From Thermoanaerobaculia bacterium (GTDB taxonomy: Bacteria > Acidobacteriota > Thermoanaerobaculia > UBA5066 > Gp7-AA6): a stretch of DNA of 64,000 bases. The stretch lies in the NCBI GenBank assembly GCA_035506175.1, contig DATJPZ010000103.1, positions 16,579 through 80,578 of the forward strand. The letters are read 5' to 3'. The notes beneath the pieces are model-generated. The model did no database searches and was not told where the DNA came from. It saw nothing but the letters and a program-made list of their open reading frames with translations. This document shows, one piece after another, positions 6,807-18,680 of this stretch (positions are counted from its first letter, which is position 1; each line of letters starts with the position of its first letter). The translations under genes were made by a program, and so were the position numbers.

Positions 6807-7325
6807 ATGCGGACCTCGATCCTCGCCGGCGTTCTGATCGGAATCCTGGCGCCGCTTCGGACGGGCGCCGGCCCGGCGCCCTCGGGAGACCAGGCGCGCG
6901 CCGCGTTCGAACGGCTCAAGGGCCTCGCCGGGAGCTGGGAGGGTCGCAGCACGAAGGGCTGGGTCGAGACGCTGCGCTACGACGTCATCGCCGGCGGCTC
7001 GACGGTCCTCGAGACCTCGCAGGGCGCGCACCCGGGCGAGACGATGGCGACGGCCTTCTACCTCGACGGTGACCGCCTGATGCTGACGCACTACTGCGTG
7101 GCGAAGAATCAGCCGCGCCTGGCGGCGACCGAGCTCGACGACGACGGAAAGACGATCGTCTTCACCTTCGTGGACGCCGCCAACCTCCCGTCGCGCGACC
7201 AGGGCCACATGGACAAGGCCGTTCTGCGATTCGAGGGGCCCGACCGCGTCGTGTCGCGCTGGACGTGGTACCAGGACGGCCGGGAGAAGTGGTTCGAGGA
7301 CATCGTGCAGACGCGGGCGCGATGA
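6807..7325 (+). CDS. Small secreted protein, DUF1579-like (hypothetical)
   Basis: AGGAGG 6 nt upstream of ATG 6807. Signal peptide MRTSILAGVLIGILAPL. Stop overlaps the sigma-factor start (ATGA). Confidence 0.6.
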   Translation: MRTSILAGVLIGILAPLRTGAGPAPSGDQARAAFERLKGLAGSWEGRSTKGWVETLRYDVIAGGSTVLETSQGAHPGETMATAFYLDGDRLMLTHYCVAKNQPRLAATELDDDGKTIVFTFVDAANLPSRDQGHMDKAVLRFEGPDRVVSRWTWYQDGREKWFEDIVQTRAR

Positions 7326-14478: not shown

Positions 14479-15249
14479 TCAGCCGACCGTCGGCGTCGGC
14501 GAGAGCTCCTCCGACGGCGAGCGCTTCTTCGGCTGGGGCATCACGAACCGCGAATCGTCGATCGGGACGTTCAGCTCGATCCTGTCGAATTTCAGCGACT
14601 GCGCCTGTCCGCCGCCGCTCGACGTGGCGGTGAAGGAGTGGGGCAGGACGAGCTCCCCCACCTTCCGGTAGTCCCCCACCTCGGACCGGATCTCGAGCTC
14701 GACGCCGCCGATCTTCTTCTTCGTGACCGTGACCGACTGCAGGAACGTCTTCGGGTCGAGATACACGAAGCGCACCTCGCCGGACTTCAGCGTGACCTTC
14801 AGCTTCCAGTCCTCGGTCCGGAAATCCGCGTCGTGGCCGAGCAGCTCCACCTTGCTCCCCTTCTGCTTGTAGTCGACGAGCGGCCCGTCGAGGTCGGCCT
14901 GCTGTTCGGCCTCGGCGCTCTCTTCGGCCGACATGGGCTCGGGCTCGGTCTGGCCCGCGAACGGAATCCACATCCAGCCGGCCTTGCCGTCGAAGGCCTG
15001 GACGGCCGTCTGCCCGTCCACCCGGAACTCCCAGCGGCTCTTGTTCGGGCGCTTCAGCTCCAGGACCGACGGCATCGACTCGTCGCCGCCCGTCATCGTC
15101 CCCGTCAGGCGCATCGTCTGGACGGCCTTGAGGTTTTCGAGTCCCCCGCGCGCCTCGATGTTCTTCGCGATCAGCTCGTCGGCGGTCTCCCCGGCGGCCA
15201 GAGCCGCCGCGGCGAACAATCCCGCCGCCGCCAATCCCCGGATCCCCAT
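14479..15249 (-). CDS. Outer-membrane lipoprotein-sorting (LolA-like) protein
   Basis: Signal peptide. ADELIAKNIEARGGLENLKAVQTMRLTG... is typical of LolA-like 'outer membrane lipoprotein-sorting protein' families. Confidence 0.6.
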   Translation of the reverse strand: MGIRGLAAAGLFAAAALAAGETADELIAKNIEARGGLENLKAVQTMRLTGTMTGGDESMPSVLELKRPNKSRWEFRVDGQTAVQAFDGKAGWMWIPFAGQTEPEPMSAEESAEAEQQADLDGPLVDYKQKGSKVELLGHDADFRTEDWKLKVTLKSGEVRFVYLDPKTFLQSVTVTKKKIGGVELEIRSEVGDYRKVGELVLPHSFTATSSGGGQAQSLKFDRIELNVPIDDSRFVMPQPKKRSPSEELSPTPTVG

Positions 15250-15349
15250 GTCGCCTCCTCGGTCCTCCGTCGGGCGGGACTCTACCGCAGCCGACCTCGC
15301 CGGCCGGGTGTATAAGAGGCCCCACCAGGACGCGCCAAGGAGGTCTCTC

Positions 15350-15634
15350 GTGGACTACAAACCGGCGCCGCGCGACACCTCGAGCGTCCGATTGCCGCGT
15401 GATCTCGCCGAGTTGACCGAGCTCCTCGCCCGCAACACGCACGAAAACTGGGCGCGCCGCCGCATGGACGAGGGCTGGACCTGGGGCCCCGAGCGCGACG
15501 ATTCACGGAAGAAGCACCCGTCGCTCGTCCCCTACGAGCGGCTGTCGGAGTCGGAGAAGGACTACGACCGCACGACCGCGATGGAGACCGTCAAGACGAT
15601 CCTCGCGCTCGGCTACCGGATCGAAAAGCGATGA
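15350..15634 (+). CDS. Stand-alone RyR-domain protein (94 aa)
   Basis: AAGGAGG 6 nt upstream of GTG 15350. LARNTHENWARRRMDEGWTWGPERDDSRKKHPSLVPYERLSESEKDYDR matches the RyR repeat pattern. Confidence 0.75.
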   Translation: MDYKPAPRDTSSVRLPRDLAELTELLARNTHENWARRRMDEGWTWGPERDDSRKKHPSLVPYERLSESEKDYDRTTAMETVKTILALGYRIEKR

Positions 15635-16641
15635 GCGACGCGACGGGCGCCGTCAACGCGGCTTACGACGAAGCGGAGCGCCACGCCTCCCGGTTCCGCC
15701 GCCTCCACATGATCGTCACGTCGATCGCCGTGGTGCTTGGCACCGTCGCTTTGATCATCGCTCTGGCAGGCCTGTCGTTTCCGCCTCCGCCTTCTCCCCC
15801 GCACGGGCCGCCGACGACGATTCCAGAAGCCCCTGCCGCGGACGGCATCTGGCCGACGACGGAATTTGCGCTGGCCCTGGGCTCCGCCTTCCTGGTGGCC
15901 CTCGGGATCGCGACCCGGCTGCAGAAGCGCTGGCTCTTGTATCGATACAAGGCCGAGCGCTACCGCAGCCTCCGCTTCAACGTCACGATCCAGCCGGCCG
16001 TCTGGATCGCCGAGAAGCCCTCGACGAATCCCGCGGAACACCTCACCCGAAAGGAGCTCGACGAAGTCGAACTGCTCGGGCTGGACGATCTGACGGCGAT
16101 CGCGGAATCGGAGGAGCCTCTGGTGATTCCGGACCCCGCCGAATGCGCGAAGGTCGATCCCGCCTGTCTGCCGCCGCTCATCGCGGACTACCTGAAGAAT
16201 CGCCTCAACCCTCAGATCGAGTACCTCGGCAAGCTGAGCAAGCGTCAGGAGAACCTCTGGCTTCCGGGCTCCTCGCTCGCTCCGTTCGCGTTCTTCGTCA
16301 GCGTCGTGTTCGTCGTCCTGCATTACGTCGCCGAGAGCCGCTGGTTTCTGTTCCTGTCGGCGGCGCTGCCGGTGGTCTGGGCCGGCTACCGCACCTGGCG
16401 AAGCGCCAACGAGCAGGAGCGCAACGCCTCGCGGTCGAAGGCCAAGCTCGCCGTCCTTCTGGCGCGCGCGGCGACGCTCGATCGGTGCGCGGACGAGGCG
16501 GACCCGTCGAAATCTCCGGCTGTCACGCGGCGCCCCGACCCCTTCCTCGTCTTCAGCACGCTCGCGATGGCCGAGAATCTGCTGCGCAACGAGCTCCAGG
16601 AATGGCTCAGGCTCATGCTGCCCACCGAGTGGTTCTCGTAA
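15631..16641 (+). CDS. Four-TM membrane protein with two SLATT/DUF4231-like 2TM modules
   Basis: ATGA overlap with the RyR gene. There are two hydrophobic hairpins (LHMIVTSIAVVLGTVALIIALAGL / FALALGSAFLVALGIATRL, and LAPFAFFVSVVFVVLHYV / FLFLSAALPVVWAGY). Each is followed by a charged helix (QKRWLLYRYKAERYRSLRF; RTWRSANEQERNASRSKAKL). Confidence 0.6.
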   Translation: MSDATGAVNAAYDEAERHASRFRRLHMIVTSIAVVLGTVALIIALAGLSFPPPPSPPHGPPTTIPEAPAADGIWPTTEFALALGSAFLVALGIATRLQKRWLLYRYKAERYRSLRFNVTIQPAVWIAEKPSTNPAEHLTRKELDEVELLGLDDLTAIAESEEPLVIPDPAECAKVDPACLPPLIADYLKNRLNPQIEYLGKLSKRQENLWLPGSSLAPFAFFVSVVFVVLHYVAESRWFLFLSAALPVVWAGYRTWRSANEQERNASRSKAKLAVLLARAATLDRCADEADPSKSPAVTRRPDPFLVFSTLAMAENLLRNELQEWLRLMLPTEWFS

Positions 16642-16656
16642 AGGGCGAGGAGCGCG

Positions 16657-17592
16657 ATGGCCGACGTCTTCATCAGCTACGCCCACGCCGACGCGGCGAT
16701 CGCGGCGGCCGTGGCCCACGGCCTCGAGGAGCGCGGCTACACGACCTGGCGCTACGAAGAGAAGAGCCGTCTCGGCGGGTCGTACCTCGAGCGCATCGGA
16801 CGCGAGATCCGGTCCTGCCGCGCGGCGCTCTTCGTGATCTCGCACGCCTCGCTCGCCTCGCCGCAGTGCAAGGGAGAGCTCGTCCGGGCGCACGAGCTCG
16901 ACAAGCCGCTCCTCCCGATGCGACGCGACATTTCCCACGAGGATCTGCTGCGCCTGAGCGACGACTGGGCGATGGCGTTGAAGGGCGCCGTCACGGCCGA
17001 CATCACCGACGCGACCGCGGCGGCCATGGCCGACGAGGCCGTCGCGGTGCTTCGCGAGCAGAACATCGAGCCCCTCGGCGGAGGTCCGCCGCCCGCGGCC
17101 TCGCCGCTCAAGCGCCTCTCGCGGGGCGCGGTGCACGGGCTGCCGCCAAAGGACCTGCCGCTCGGCGCGATGGTCGCCGGCATCGTCGGCGTCCTCGGCG
17201 TCCCCTACACGCTCTACCACTTCGGCCACGCCCTCTGGCCGGGCCAGGATCCCGAGGGCTGGGTCCTGACGCACTTCCACGGGTTCCGCACCGCGACGAT
17301 CCTCGCCAACTTCGTCGGAATCATCCAGAACGGCCTGCTCGTCCGCGGCGCCATGCTCGCGCATCGCGGCGACCCGAAGGGCGGGCCGCTGCTGCGCACG
17401 GTCTCGAAGACCATGCTCATCGCGATCGGCCTCTGGTTTCTCGTCTGCCTGTTCTCCTTCTCGGGACGCAACGTCCCGCCGGGGCTGGTGAGCGGCGCCT
17501 TCAACGCCGCGCTCGTGGCGGCCGTTCCCTCGGCGGCGATTTTCGCGCTCTACCGCAAGAGCGGGCAGGCGCCCGCCCCCGCGAACCCGTGA
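16657..17592 (+). CDS. TIR domain protein fused to a C-terminal four-helix membrane domain
   Basis: GAGGAG upstream. MADVFISYAHADAAIA...RSCRAALFVISHASLASPQCKGELVRAHE forms the TIR core with a candidate catalytic Glu. Four hydrophobic helices follow in the C-terminal half. Confidence 0.85.
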   Translation: MADVFISYAHADAAIAAAVAHGLEERGYTTWRYEEKSRLGGSYLERIGREIRSCRAALFVISHASLASPQCKGELVRAHELDKPLLPMRRDISHEDLLRLSDDWAMALKGAVTADITDATAAAMADEAVAVLREQNIEPLGGGPPPAASPLKRLSRGAVHGLPPKDLPLGAMVAGIVGVLGVPYTLYHFGHALWPGQDPEGWVLTHFHGFRTATILANFVGIIQNGLLVRGAMLAHRGDPKGGPLLRTVSKTMLIAIGLWFLVCLFSFSGRNVPPGLVSGAFNAALVAAVPSAAIFALYRKSGQAPAPANP

Positions 17593-18680
17593 CGGACGTC
17601 GACGCCCTCCCCACGCCCGCCGTCGTCGTGGACCTCGACGTCCTCGAGCGCAACGTCGCGCGGATGCAGGAACGCGCGAGCCGTTCGGGCGTGAAGCTGC
17701 GCCCCCACGCGAAGACGCACAAGTCGCCCGAGGTGGCGCGCCTGCAGCGCTCCGCCGGCGCGAGCGGGCTCACCCTCGCGAAGACCTCGGAGGCGGAGGT
17801 GTTCGCCGACCTCGGCTTCGACGACATCTTCCTCGCGTACCCCGTCGTCGGCGACGACAAGGCCCGGCGCCTGCTGAAGCTCGCCGATCGCGTGCGTCTC
17901 GCCGTCGGCGTCGACAGCCTCGACGGCGCCCGCTCGCTCGGCGGCGCGTTCGCCCGCGCGGGCCGGACGCTCTCCGTGCGCCTCGAGATCGACCCCGGCT
18001 TCCACCGCTCGGGCGTCCTGCCCGAGGACACCGTCGCGCTCGCGCGCGCGGTGGCCGACGTGCCGGGCCTCGAGCTCTCCGCGATCTTCACGCACGCGGG
18101 CCAGGGCTACGCGGCGACGACTCCCGAAGAAGTCGCGCGCGTCGGCGCCGAGGAGGCGCGCCTCGCGGTCGAAACGGCCGAAGCCCTGCGCGCGGCCGGC
18201 CTGCCGATCGCCGAGGTCTCCGTCGGTTCGACGCCCACCGCCGTGGCGGCGATGTCGGGCGCCGGCGTCACCGAGTGCCGTCCGGGAACCTACGTCTTCA
18301 ACGACCGCTCGCAGGTCGCCCTCGGAAGCGCGGCGCCGGAAGACTGCGCCCTGACCGTCATCGCGACCGTCGTCAGCGCTCCGGCCGCCGACCGCGCCGT
18401 CGTCGACGCGGGCTCGAAGACGCTGTCCTCGGACGCCAGCCGCCCGACCGCGGACGGCTACGGGCTCGTCGTGGGGCGACAAACGCGGATCGCCCGCGTC
18501 TCGGAGGAGCACGGCGTCCTCGCGGTCGCGCCCGGCGAGCGATTCCGGGTCGGCGAGCGCGTCCGCCTGCTGCCCAACCATGCCTGCGCCGTCGTCAACC
18601 TGCACGACGCGCTGGTGGCGGTGCGGGGCGGGCGCGTCGAGGGCCGGCTCACCGTCGCCGCGCGCGGCCGCGTCCAGTAG
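17589..18680 (+). CDS. D-threonine aldolase / D-serine dehydratase-like PLP enzyme (alanine racemase N-terminal fold, DSD1 family)
   Basis: GTGA overlap with the TIR stop. LPTPAVVVDLDVLERNVARMQ...KLRPHAKTHK (PLP lysine) ...RPGTYVFND...LLPNHAC. Confidence 0.8.
   Translation: MTDVDALPTPAVVVDLDVLERNVARMQERASRSGVKLRPHAKTHKSPEVARLQRSAGASGLTLAKTSEAEVFADLGFDDIFLAYPVVGDDKARRLLKLADRVRLAVGVDSLDGARSLGGAFARAGRTLSVRLEIDPGFHRSGVLPEDTVALARAVADVPGLELSAIFTHAGQGYAATTPEEVARVGAEEARLAVETAEALRAAGLPIAEVSVGSTPTAVAAMSGAGVTECRPGTYVFNDRSQVALGSAAPEDCALTVIATVVSAPAADRAVVDAGSKTLSSDASRPTADGYGLVVGRQTRIARVSEEHGVLAVAPGERFRVGERVRLLPNHACAVVNLHDALVAVRGGRVEGRLTVAARGRVQ

Follow-up and report, generated by a model that had tools for sequence, protein, structure and literature searches.

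A RyR, tandem-SLATT and membrane-TIR operon of Thermoanaerobaculia is a candidate Thoeris-like NAD-signaling module

We analyzed a 64,000-nucleotide stretch of DNA from a Thermoanaerobaculia bacterium (Acidobacteriota; GenBank assembly GCA_035506175.1, contig DATJPZ010000103.1, positions 16,579 to 80,578 of the forward strand), hereafter the window, and focused on three same-strand genes at its positions 15350 to 17592, which we call g1, g2, and g3. Their products are a soluble protein made of one RyR repeat, a membrane protein with two SLATT-type modules in tandem, and a TIR-domain protein that ends in four transmembrane (TM) helices. The features of the locus, in window coordinates, are the following:

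15337..15343, + strand: Shine-Dalgarno-like AAGGAGG, 6 nt 5′ of the g1 GTG start at 15350 (sequence reading)
15350..15634, + strand: g1, 94 aa, soluble, one RyR repeat with His31, Trp34, His56, and Asp73 (Pfam, BLASTP, MAFFT)
15631..16641, + strand: g2, 336 aa, tandem-SLATT (ThsH-like) membrane protein with 4 TM helices in two hairpins (Pfam, hhalign, AlphaFold2)
16647..16652, + strand: GAGGAG, ribosome-binding-like motif inside the g2-g3 spacer (sequence reading)
16657..17592, + strand: g3 open reading frame, 311 aa, ATG start at 16657 (list of open reading frames)
16657..17061, + strand: g3 TIR domain, residues 1-135, with the Glu74 codon at 16876-16878 (TIR_2, alignments, Foldseek)
17155..17565, + strand: g3 four-helix TM module, residues 167-303, after a disordered linker at 142-166 (AlphaFold2 model)
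17589..18680, + strand: D-Ser-dehydratase-like pyridoxal phosphate (PLP) enzyme, whose GTG start overlaps the g3 stop as GTGA (sequence; Ala_racemase_N and D-ser_dehydrat on orthologues)

The g1 stop and the g2 start overlap in an ATGA (15631-15634), and g2 ends with TAA at 16639-16641, leaving a 15-nt spacer before the g3 ATG. A mechanical list of open reading frames places the g1 start at ATG 14933 (233 aa, 14933-15634), overlapping an opposite-strand LolA-like gene; we take GTG 15350 to be the true start because the orthologues are 93 to 97 aa long and because a ribosome-binding site precedes it. A preliminary description of this DNA had reported the AAGGAGG 6 nt before GTG 15350, the ATGA overlap, and the GAGGAG in a 15-nt spacer, all of which are exact, and had assigned the three products to the RyR, SLATT-like, and TIR families. 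Pfam searches uphold these assignments, clearly for RyR (E 5.4e-37) and TIR_2 (E 4.8e-19) and marginally for the DUF4231 match of g2 (25.4 bits versus a cut-off of 24.7). The same description had seen a two-hairpin SLATT/DUF4231 layout in g2, a glutamate at the catalytic position in the TIR domain of g3, and four TM helices at the end of g3; the structure models and alignments presented below agree with it on each. A scan for promoters and terminators was uninformative in this genome of 70% guanine-plus-cytosine (GC) content, the sole promoter-like site preceding a MarR gene.

The first gene encodes a complete RyR repeat, matching PF02026 over model positions 1-91 of 91 (126.4 bits, cut-off 27.4). 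Its PDB matches are the animal RyR Repeat12 and the RyR-like protein of B. thetaiotaomicron (3NRT, E 1e-33), which, like its second entry 6UAG, is a single RyR repeat of ~100 aa as g1 is; alignment to the repeats of RyR2 gave a per-repeat E of 1e-19. Animal RyR Repeat12 binds adenine nucleotides, and phage proteins of the RyDEP family bind or cleave the cyclic ADP-ribose (cADPR) isomers 2′cADPR and 3′cADPR, acting as sponges or glycosidases (PMC13232231). In RyDEP, four residues (His75, Trp78, His100, and Asp117) contact a ligand derived from 3′cADPR and include a catalytic His/Asp dyad (PMC13232231). We aligned g1 directly with the RyDEP reference, DyoEdafos gp78: BLASTP pairs g1 residues 30-70 with RyDEP 74-114 (H31 with H75, W34 with W78, H56 with H100), and MAFFT sets D73 opposite D117, such that all four pocket residues are kept. 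Among 65 distinct g2-linked RyR domains, H31 is conserved in 65, W34 in 63, H56 in 51, and D73 in 58. Sponge-type RyDEP homologues keep the same residues yet do not catalyze (PMC13232231), and g1 lacks the 44-residue N-terminal extension of RyDEP in the alignment. By analogy with RyDEP and the B. thetaiotaomicron protein, g1 probably dimerizes. While g1 resembles RyDEP in being a single PF02026 repeat with all four ligand and catalytic residues, it differs in being host encoded and translationally coupled, or in relatives fused, to a SLATT protein; the RyDEP paper treats viral members only (PMC13232231). The role of g1 is presumably one that serves its system, as sensor or regulator, in contrast to the anti-defense role of RyDEP.

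Some RyR partners of g2-like genes carry two tandem repeats in one protein encoded 3′ of the SLATT gene (L035 8167-8670, L074 8652-9164, L078 7781-8299, L085, and L088), which resembles the eukaryotic Repeat12 arrangement. Stand-alone RyR genes 50-58% identical to g1 occur on two human-fecal contigs deposited as "UNVERIFIED Bacteriophage sp." (L018 and L019; GenBank MT836850 and MT837259). We did not retain these as phage contigs with close RyR homologues, as they may be Bacteroides-like cellular fragments; unlike g1, these Bacteroides-type copies have no SLATT gene beside them.

Linkage of RyR repeats to g2-like proteins extends well beyond this locus. An RyR gene lies directly 5′ of the g2-like gene in 6 of 6 species-representative genome hits (three Thermoanaerobaculia, two Acidobacteriaceae, and one Dongiaceae). 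A metagenome scan for the g2 family yielded 80 loci with GC contents of 41-71%, about a dozen of them syntenic with the window, and RyR is present in 57 of the 65 that have at least 350 nt 5′ of g2; in most of these, it overlaps g2 or lies no more than 700 nt away. Counted by cluster, RyR is present in 34 of 41. RyR hits concentrate near g2, with 60 within 2.5 kb and 6 beyond (p 6e-7). In at least four clusters (P0069, P0080, P0123, and P0166), RyR is fused N-terminally to the tandem SLATT through a linker that looks natural; six contigs carry the P0080 fusion, and one further contig carries another member of its cluster, 442 aa long. Because these fusions provide Rosetta-stone evidence, a physical partnership of RyR and SLATT is the best-supported single inference from our data. 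The preliminary description had proposed the RyR domain as a nucleotide sensor, and both the conserved pocket and the natural fusions support that proposal. Judged from gene linkage, the obligatory core is RyR plus the double SLATT, with the TIR-4TM gene present in only part of the family.

The second gene encodes a protein whose AlphaFold2 model is all-helical (predicted local distance difference test (pLDDT) score 86.8, predicted template modeling score 0.81). TM hairpins are formed by residues ~27-49 with 70-95 and 213-234 with 237-259, and long cytoplasmic helices follow each; the N-terminus, the stretch between the hairpins, and the EWLRLML helix at the C-terminus are predicted to be cytoplasmic. 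The DUF4231 match covers residues 13-111. The SLATT assignment is clear for the family: of 78 g2-family members searched, SLATT_1 is matched by 32/78, DUF4231 by 18/78, and SLATT_3 by 12/78. The modules come in the order DUF4231 or SLATT_3 (N-terminal half), then SLATT_1 (C-terminal half), and some single members score above the cut-offs for both. An internal duplication is not supported, as hhalign detects no repeat between the N- and C-terminal halves of the family (probability 3.6%); the modules are recognized only through their Pfam SLATT-clan matches and not by mutual similarity. Foldseek against the PDB found no solved structural relative of g2, the best match being ABC-exporter helices (E 0.025, TM-score ~0.2). 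Among 1.84 billion representatives, the g2-family profile matches 674 clusters at 50% identity, 281 of them at E≤1e-30, and nearly all are 340-390 aa long and aligned over their full length. The family was not found in a scan of the viral contigs of IMG/VR. With its 2-TM hairpins and cytoplasmic helices, g2 resembles the SLATT effectors of CBASS and other systems (Pfam SLATT_1-6 and DUF4231), which are predicted to breach membranes; unlike those of CBASS and nucleotide-centered systems, it has no CD-NTase, SMODS, or SLOG partner in the window, and its input domain is RyR.

Three loci (L005 381-2449, L048, and L029) carry two or three tandem double-SLATT paralogues after one RyR gene, with no TIR within their available sequence.

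The third gene encodes a TIR domain (TIR_2 match, residues 4-96) attached to the membrane. Its AlphaFold2 model (pLDDT 82.8) shows a TIR fold at residues 1-135, the disordered linker, and the four TM helices, and Foldseek matches the fold to AbTir, SPARTA, SARM1, and plant TIRs, with AbTir first (7uxu, TM-score 0.72). Glu74 is invariant in 19 g3 homologues and falls on the catalytic-position glutamate of AbTir (DWTNYEL) and BtTir (NWTEYEL) in a profile alignment; a single-sequence PDB search was ambiguous in this region, and the profile search resolved it. The domain matches TIR_2 and TIR, with no ThsB_TIR match at E≤1. No Pfam family matches the four-TM module, which is conserved across the g3 family; its occurrence is limited to loci of the Thermoanaerobaculia type and to L032, L036, and L039. 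These helices would tether g3 to the inner membrane. Topology was read from the charge distribution, in which loops free of Lys and Arg lie outside; the N-termini of g2 and g3, the TIR domain, and the SLATT cytoplasmic helices are predicted to be inside. All soluble parts are therefore predicted to face the cytoplasm, where nicotinamide adenine dinucleotide (NAD+) is found. All three products had been expected to act at the membrane, which holds for g2 and g3 as membrane proteins; g1 is soluble and would reach the membrane only by docking or fusion.

Within Thermoanaerobaculia, the three genes form a conserved unit. Every full-length g3 homologue whose context we examined lies in an RyR-g2-TIR operon in the same chromosomal slot (L001-4, L012, L013, L014, L015, and L016/17), with g3 identities of 42-75% across the L001-4 and L012-L017 operons. 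The same gene order and coupling appear in L001-4, L012-17, and L020-25, on at least 10 independent contigs, far beyond chance. Identity to the window is ~52-85% for the flanking proteins (71-83% in L001), 71-83% for g1, 42-75% for g3 over its full length (79% over the TIR part in L001), and ~25-41% for g2 in otherwise syntenic operons (L001, L012-L016). Because the same slot recurs with these identities, we conclude that the operon is old and vertically inherited and that its middle gene diverges unusually fast. Cross-genome synteny had been suggested in the preliminary description as a check, and the RyR-SLATT-TIR unit passes it strongly. The trio does stand as a single unit in this class, but the core is RyR plus SLATT, the TIR gene having been deleted in two close, syntenic relatives: L007 has no TIR gene, its g2 directly adjoins the dehydratase gene, and its RyR-SLATT pair is intact, and in L008, only a remnant of the TIR-4TM gene persists (6902-7045), comprising its first 32 codons, 72% identical to P0021/P0022, followed by a deletion. 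The 5′ remnant and the deletion in L008 point to recent loss of the TIR gene from an ancestral trio.

TIR domains also recur beside the pair in other lineages. Using a home-made TIR hidden Markov model (which missed the TIR-PDZ partner of L067), we found TIR in 21 of the 33 loci in which g2 has 1.5 kb or more of sequence on each side. Thirty-six TIR hits lie within 2.5 kb of g2 and 4 farther away (14.0 versus 2.8 per 100 kb, p 2e-4), and 32 of the 40 are on the g2 strand, in the gene orders ryr-g2-tir, tir-ryr-g2, and g2-ryr-tir. Most of these partners combine an N-terminal TIR with C-terminal TM segments, and lineages other than Thermoanaerobaculia use other TM modules. Partners built independently of this plan are the SIR2-TIR proteins of the Acidobacteriaceae loci and the TIR-PDZ protein of L067. 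In the low-GC branch, which had seemed to lack TIR, every locus long enough to show it has a giant DUF4062-AAA/nSTAND-TPR protein directly 3′. DUF4062 is reported to be a TIR-like NADase making ADP-ribose (ADPR), and Swarozyc is described as NAD-depleting and not signaling (bioRxiv 10.64898/2026.05.01.722283). The low-GC branch resembles the Swarozyc/DUF4062 NADases in having DUF4062-STAND-TPR in place of TIR-TM beside RyR-SLATT, unlike the window, where no DUF4062 protein is present; against the PDB, the DUF4062 N-domain matches TEP1 only, and its identity as a TIR-like NADase rests on the preprint. With DUF4062 counted, ~25 of 41 clusters have a TIR or TIR-like neighbor predicted to cleave NAD.

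This recurrence bears on whether g3 belongs with the other two genes at all. The TIR-4TM protein could be a stand-alone NAD-depleting effector, as many bacterial TIRs are (bioRxiv 10.64898/2025.12.03.692087), with RyR-SLATT an independent two-gene neighbor that shares no signal with it, and the TIR gene is indeed dispensable in some loci (L007, L008). We consider this very improbable: the architectures and gene orders in which TIR or TIR-like genes recur beside RyR-SLATT are unrelated, the genes mostly share a strand, with gaps of 0-170 nt or overlaps, and neighbors brought together by chance would not have stayed together over so much divergence.

Other neighbors of the pair come from the nucleotide-conflict repertoire. 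In the metagenome-assembled genomes L009 and L010 (Acidobacteriaceae), RyR-SLATT is flanked by the SIR2-TIR proteins, which are paired with nSTAND1-Lcl_C-FGE-sulfatase NTPases; elsewhere we observed a caspase, a weak SLOG hit, and a NUDIX-RelA/SpoT-TPR-S protein. No constant fourth gene was found among the neighbors of RyR-SLATT loci. L009 also has a DISARM-like DrmA/DrmB/DrmC set, a genuine defense-island context, unlike the window. In L083 (5524-7989), the 822-aa NUDIX + RelA/SpoT + TPR-S protein is encoded directly after the RyR gene, and because NUDIX and RelA/SpoT families act on nucleotides, its role in that variant may be to process or produce nucleotide signals.

The combination of a TIR gene with a tandem SLATT gene has a precedent. 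As described by Yirmiya et al. (bioRxiv 10.64898/2025.12.03.692087), type VII Thoeris is a defense system consisting of a TIR protein, ThsB, and a SLATT effector, ThsH, that uses canonical cADPR as its signal. The trio had been described as matching no known architecture; this does not hold, as TIR plus tandem SLATT is the type VII arrangement and g2 is probably a distant homologue of its effector. As a comparator, we used a plasmid locus of Neorhizobium petrolearium (L102; NZ_CP123001, 221001-226414), to which a type VII ThsB sequence from Table S1 of that paper led through a 62%-identical ThsB. Here, two ThsB_TIR genes flank a gene for a 289-aa SLATT_3+SLATT_1 protein; the surroundings include one more TIR gene and an IS630 transposase. 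The g2 family matches this 289-aa protein, which is type VII-like and not a tested ThsH, with an hhalign probability of 90.5% (E 1.4e-6). As in type VII, the TIR gene is operonic with the tandem SLATT effector gene (a 15-nt spacer separates g2 from g3 on one strand, an arrangement that is conserved), and the g2 family shares the order DUF4231/SLATT_3 then SLATT_1. Unlike the two-gene type VII system, the locus has a third conserved gene, RyR, sometimes fused to the effector; g3 is a TIR_2-type protein with a 4-TM anchor rather than a soluble ThsB_TIR (PF08937); g2 is longer and so diverged that Pfam thresholds are barely reached; and the window locus is chromosomal and core-like. "RyR" does not occur in the text of the type VII paper or in the available part of its Tables S1-S3, and our literature search found no publication linking SLATT with RyR. 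We regard g2 as a probable distant, longer ThsH-like protein and would class the system with Thoeris, as a variant that differs from type VII in its conserved RyR subunit, its membrane-anchored TIR_2, its highly diverged effector, and its residence in the core genome.

We therefore propose, giving it about an even chance, that the locus encodes a three-component Thoeris-like NAD-signaling module in which a membrane TIR would make an ADPR-type signal, RyR would sense or trim it, and a SLATT pore would respond. The bases of this proposal are the domain identities, the pocket and catalytic residues, the cytoplasmic topology, the RyR-SLATT linkage, and the recurrent TIR adjacency; from them we infer the ligand, the direction of signaling, pore formation, the trigger, and the biological role. 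On a trigger, membrane-tethered g3 would convert NAD+ into an ADP-ribose-derived signal (cADPR, 2′cADPR, 3′cADPR, or ADPR). The g1 RyR protein, as a probable dimer, would bind this nucleotide in its His/Trp/His/Asp pocket and, being physically coupled to the ThsH-like tandem SLATT protein g2, would cause the latter to open or to oligomerize into a membrane-breaching assembly, with depolarization and growth arrest or abortive infection as the outcome. With the catalytic dyad of RyDEP still in place, the RyR protein may in addition cleave the signal, which would reset the switch.

The retained dyad (His31/Asp73, highly conserved in the family) also fits a different division of labor within the same Thoeris-like system. 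SLATT itself could sense the TIR product, as is predicted for ThsH, with RyR serving as a brake that sequesters or hydrolyzes basal signal and thereby imposes a threshold, guards against self-killing, and returns the system to rest, comparable to the ring nucleases of type III CRISPR. Phage RyR proteins do work as sponges or glycosidases (PMC13232231), and type VII Thoeris operates without RyR (bioRxiv 10.64898/2025.12.03.692087; L102). A brake, however, needs no translational coupling or covalent fusion to the effector, yet both are seen, and RyR-SLATT persists where the linked TIR is absent or deleted, which would leave nothing to buffer. We regard a brake in place of a sensor as unlikely, and note that the roles of sensor and brake are mutually compatible.

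The chromosomal setting raises a further question, whether the module is immune at all. Upstream, on the opposite strand, are genes for a cystathionine lyase, a Peptidase_M55, and a LolA-like protein, and downstream those for the D-Ser-dehydratase-like PLP enzyme, MarR, YceI, and a fatty-acid desaturase; Pfam matches across the window include a tRNA synthetase, RNase II/R, TonB receptors, Fur, ABC transporters, and a GGDEF-EAL protein. PADLOC called no system on the trio, returning generic TIR matches only, and on the whole window gave generic matches only (mad3, Csa3-like, and mad8). Neither PADLOC nor Pfam detected a CD-NTase or pyrimidine cyclase in the trio or in the window, and the earlier remark that the trio adjoins no partner of the cyclase, SLOG, Macro, STAND, or nuclease kind holds for the window as a whole. 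Enrichment in defense islands, which the preliminary description had proposed to look for, is not borne out here; such surroundings occur only in some other lineages, for example in L009 and L010. We conclude that the locus is a vertically inherited housekeeping slot and not a defense island in this genome.

RyR and the tandem SLATT could accordingly form a nucleotide-gated channel (responding to ATP, ADP, ADPR, or an NAD-linked ligand) in the physiology or stress signaling of Thermoanaerobaculia, with the TIR as a local NAD-turnover enzyme. The fixed slot between the Peptidase_M55/LolA-like and D-Ser-dehydratase/YceI/desaturase genes, whose products are ~52-85% identical across relatives, is in keeping with such a function, as are the probable co-transcription with the PLP enzyme, the lack of defense genes in the window, the absence of the g2 family from IMG/VR viral contigs, and the binding of adenine nucleotides by animal RyR Repeat12 (PMC13232231). 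Against it, the pair elsewhere adjoins conflict genes (SIR2-TIR with nSTAND1, DISARM, DUF4062-STAND-TPR, caspase, and NUDIX-RelA/SpoT-TPR-S), g2 diverges much faster (~25-41%) than g1 (71-83%) and the flanks (~52-85%), and the distribution is patchy with variable gene orders. On balance, we find a purely physiological channel rather improbable.

Several observations weigh against the three-component signaling module. Core-like vertical inheritance is atypical for phage-defense systems, and the neighborhood is a housekeeping one, with no defense genes in the window and likewise in its syntenic relatives. With the TIR gene deleted in L007 and L008 and RyR-SLATT intact, it follows that the pair can persist without a linked generator, and 16 of 41 clusters (~40%) have no TIR or TIR-like gene within the available sequence, some contigs being too short. 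In g3, the Trp of the WxxxE motif is replaced by Gln70 in the family. For g2, the NCBIfam SLATT_1 score is 24.5 bits where the cut-off is 41, the Pfam pass is marginal, and the hhalign match to the ThsH-like protein spans only the N-module and linker. Finally, type VII ThsH is predicted to bind cADPR unaided, so a separate sensor is not strictly needed.

If the proposed module operates as described, it would give RyR repeats a native prokaryotic role, as nucleotide receptor or regulator of a membrane pore, would explain from where phages acquired RyDEP, and would add a variant with a sensor in trans and a membrane-anchored TIR to the Thoeris repertoire. Bacteria would then also provide a simple model of how cADPR and ryanodine-receptor domains are connected, a link that has long been debated. 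Preprints of 2025-26 describe TIR + SLATT operons as cADPR-signaling Thoeris and phage RyR proteins as binding or destroying cADPR isomers; the locus joins both on the host side and supplies a host context for the putative recognition of cADPR-type signals by RyR domains. The locus also illustrates that a module of this kind can belong stably to the chromosome of an entire lineage (Thermoanaerobaculia), where it is passed on vertically, and need not be a gene of mobile islands.

More tentatively, and with reservations, we suggest that TIR-derived ADP-ribose signals have their native receptors in host-encoded RyR repeats, which would gate the SLATT membrane pore. Were this so, the module would be a prokaryotic counterpart, and possibly an evolutionary source, of the animal logic in which cADPR acts on an RyR-domain channel; phage RyDEP sponges and glycosidases would be captured copies of a host receptor; and the system would constitute a new type of Thoeris, in which the sensor is a subunit of its own (fused in some cases) and the signal synthase is anchored in the membrane. 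The module resembles the animal ryanodine receptor in that a nucleotide-binding RyR repeat is predicted to be joined to a membrane-permeabilizing protein. The pore parts are unrelated, however (SLATT versus a six-TM cation channel), and the analogy would be a functional one.

The D-Ser-dehydratase-like PLP enzyme encoded immediately after g3 is probably not part of the system, and its gene is not linked to the module outside Thermoanaerobaculia. Within this class, the gene is probably co-transcribed with the module, because the 4-nt GTGA overlap with g3 seen in the window recurs in L001 and L014, and because in L007 the PLP gene directly follows g2.

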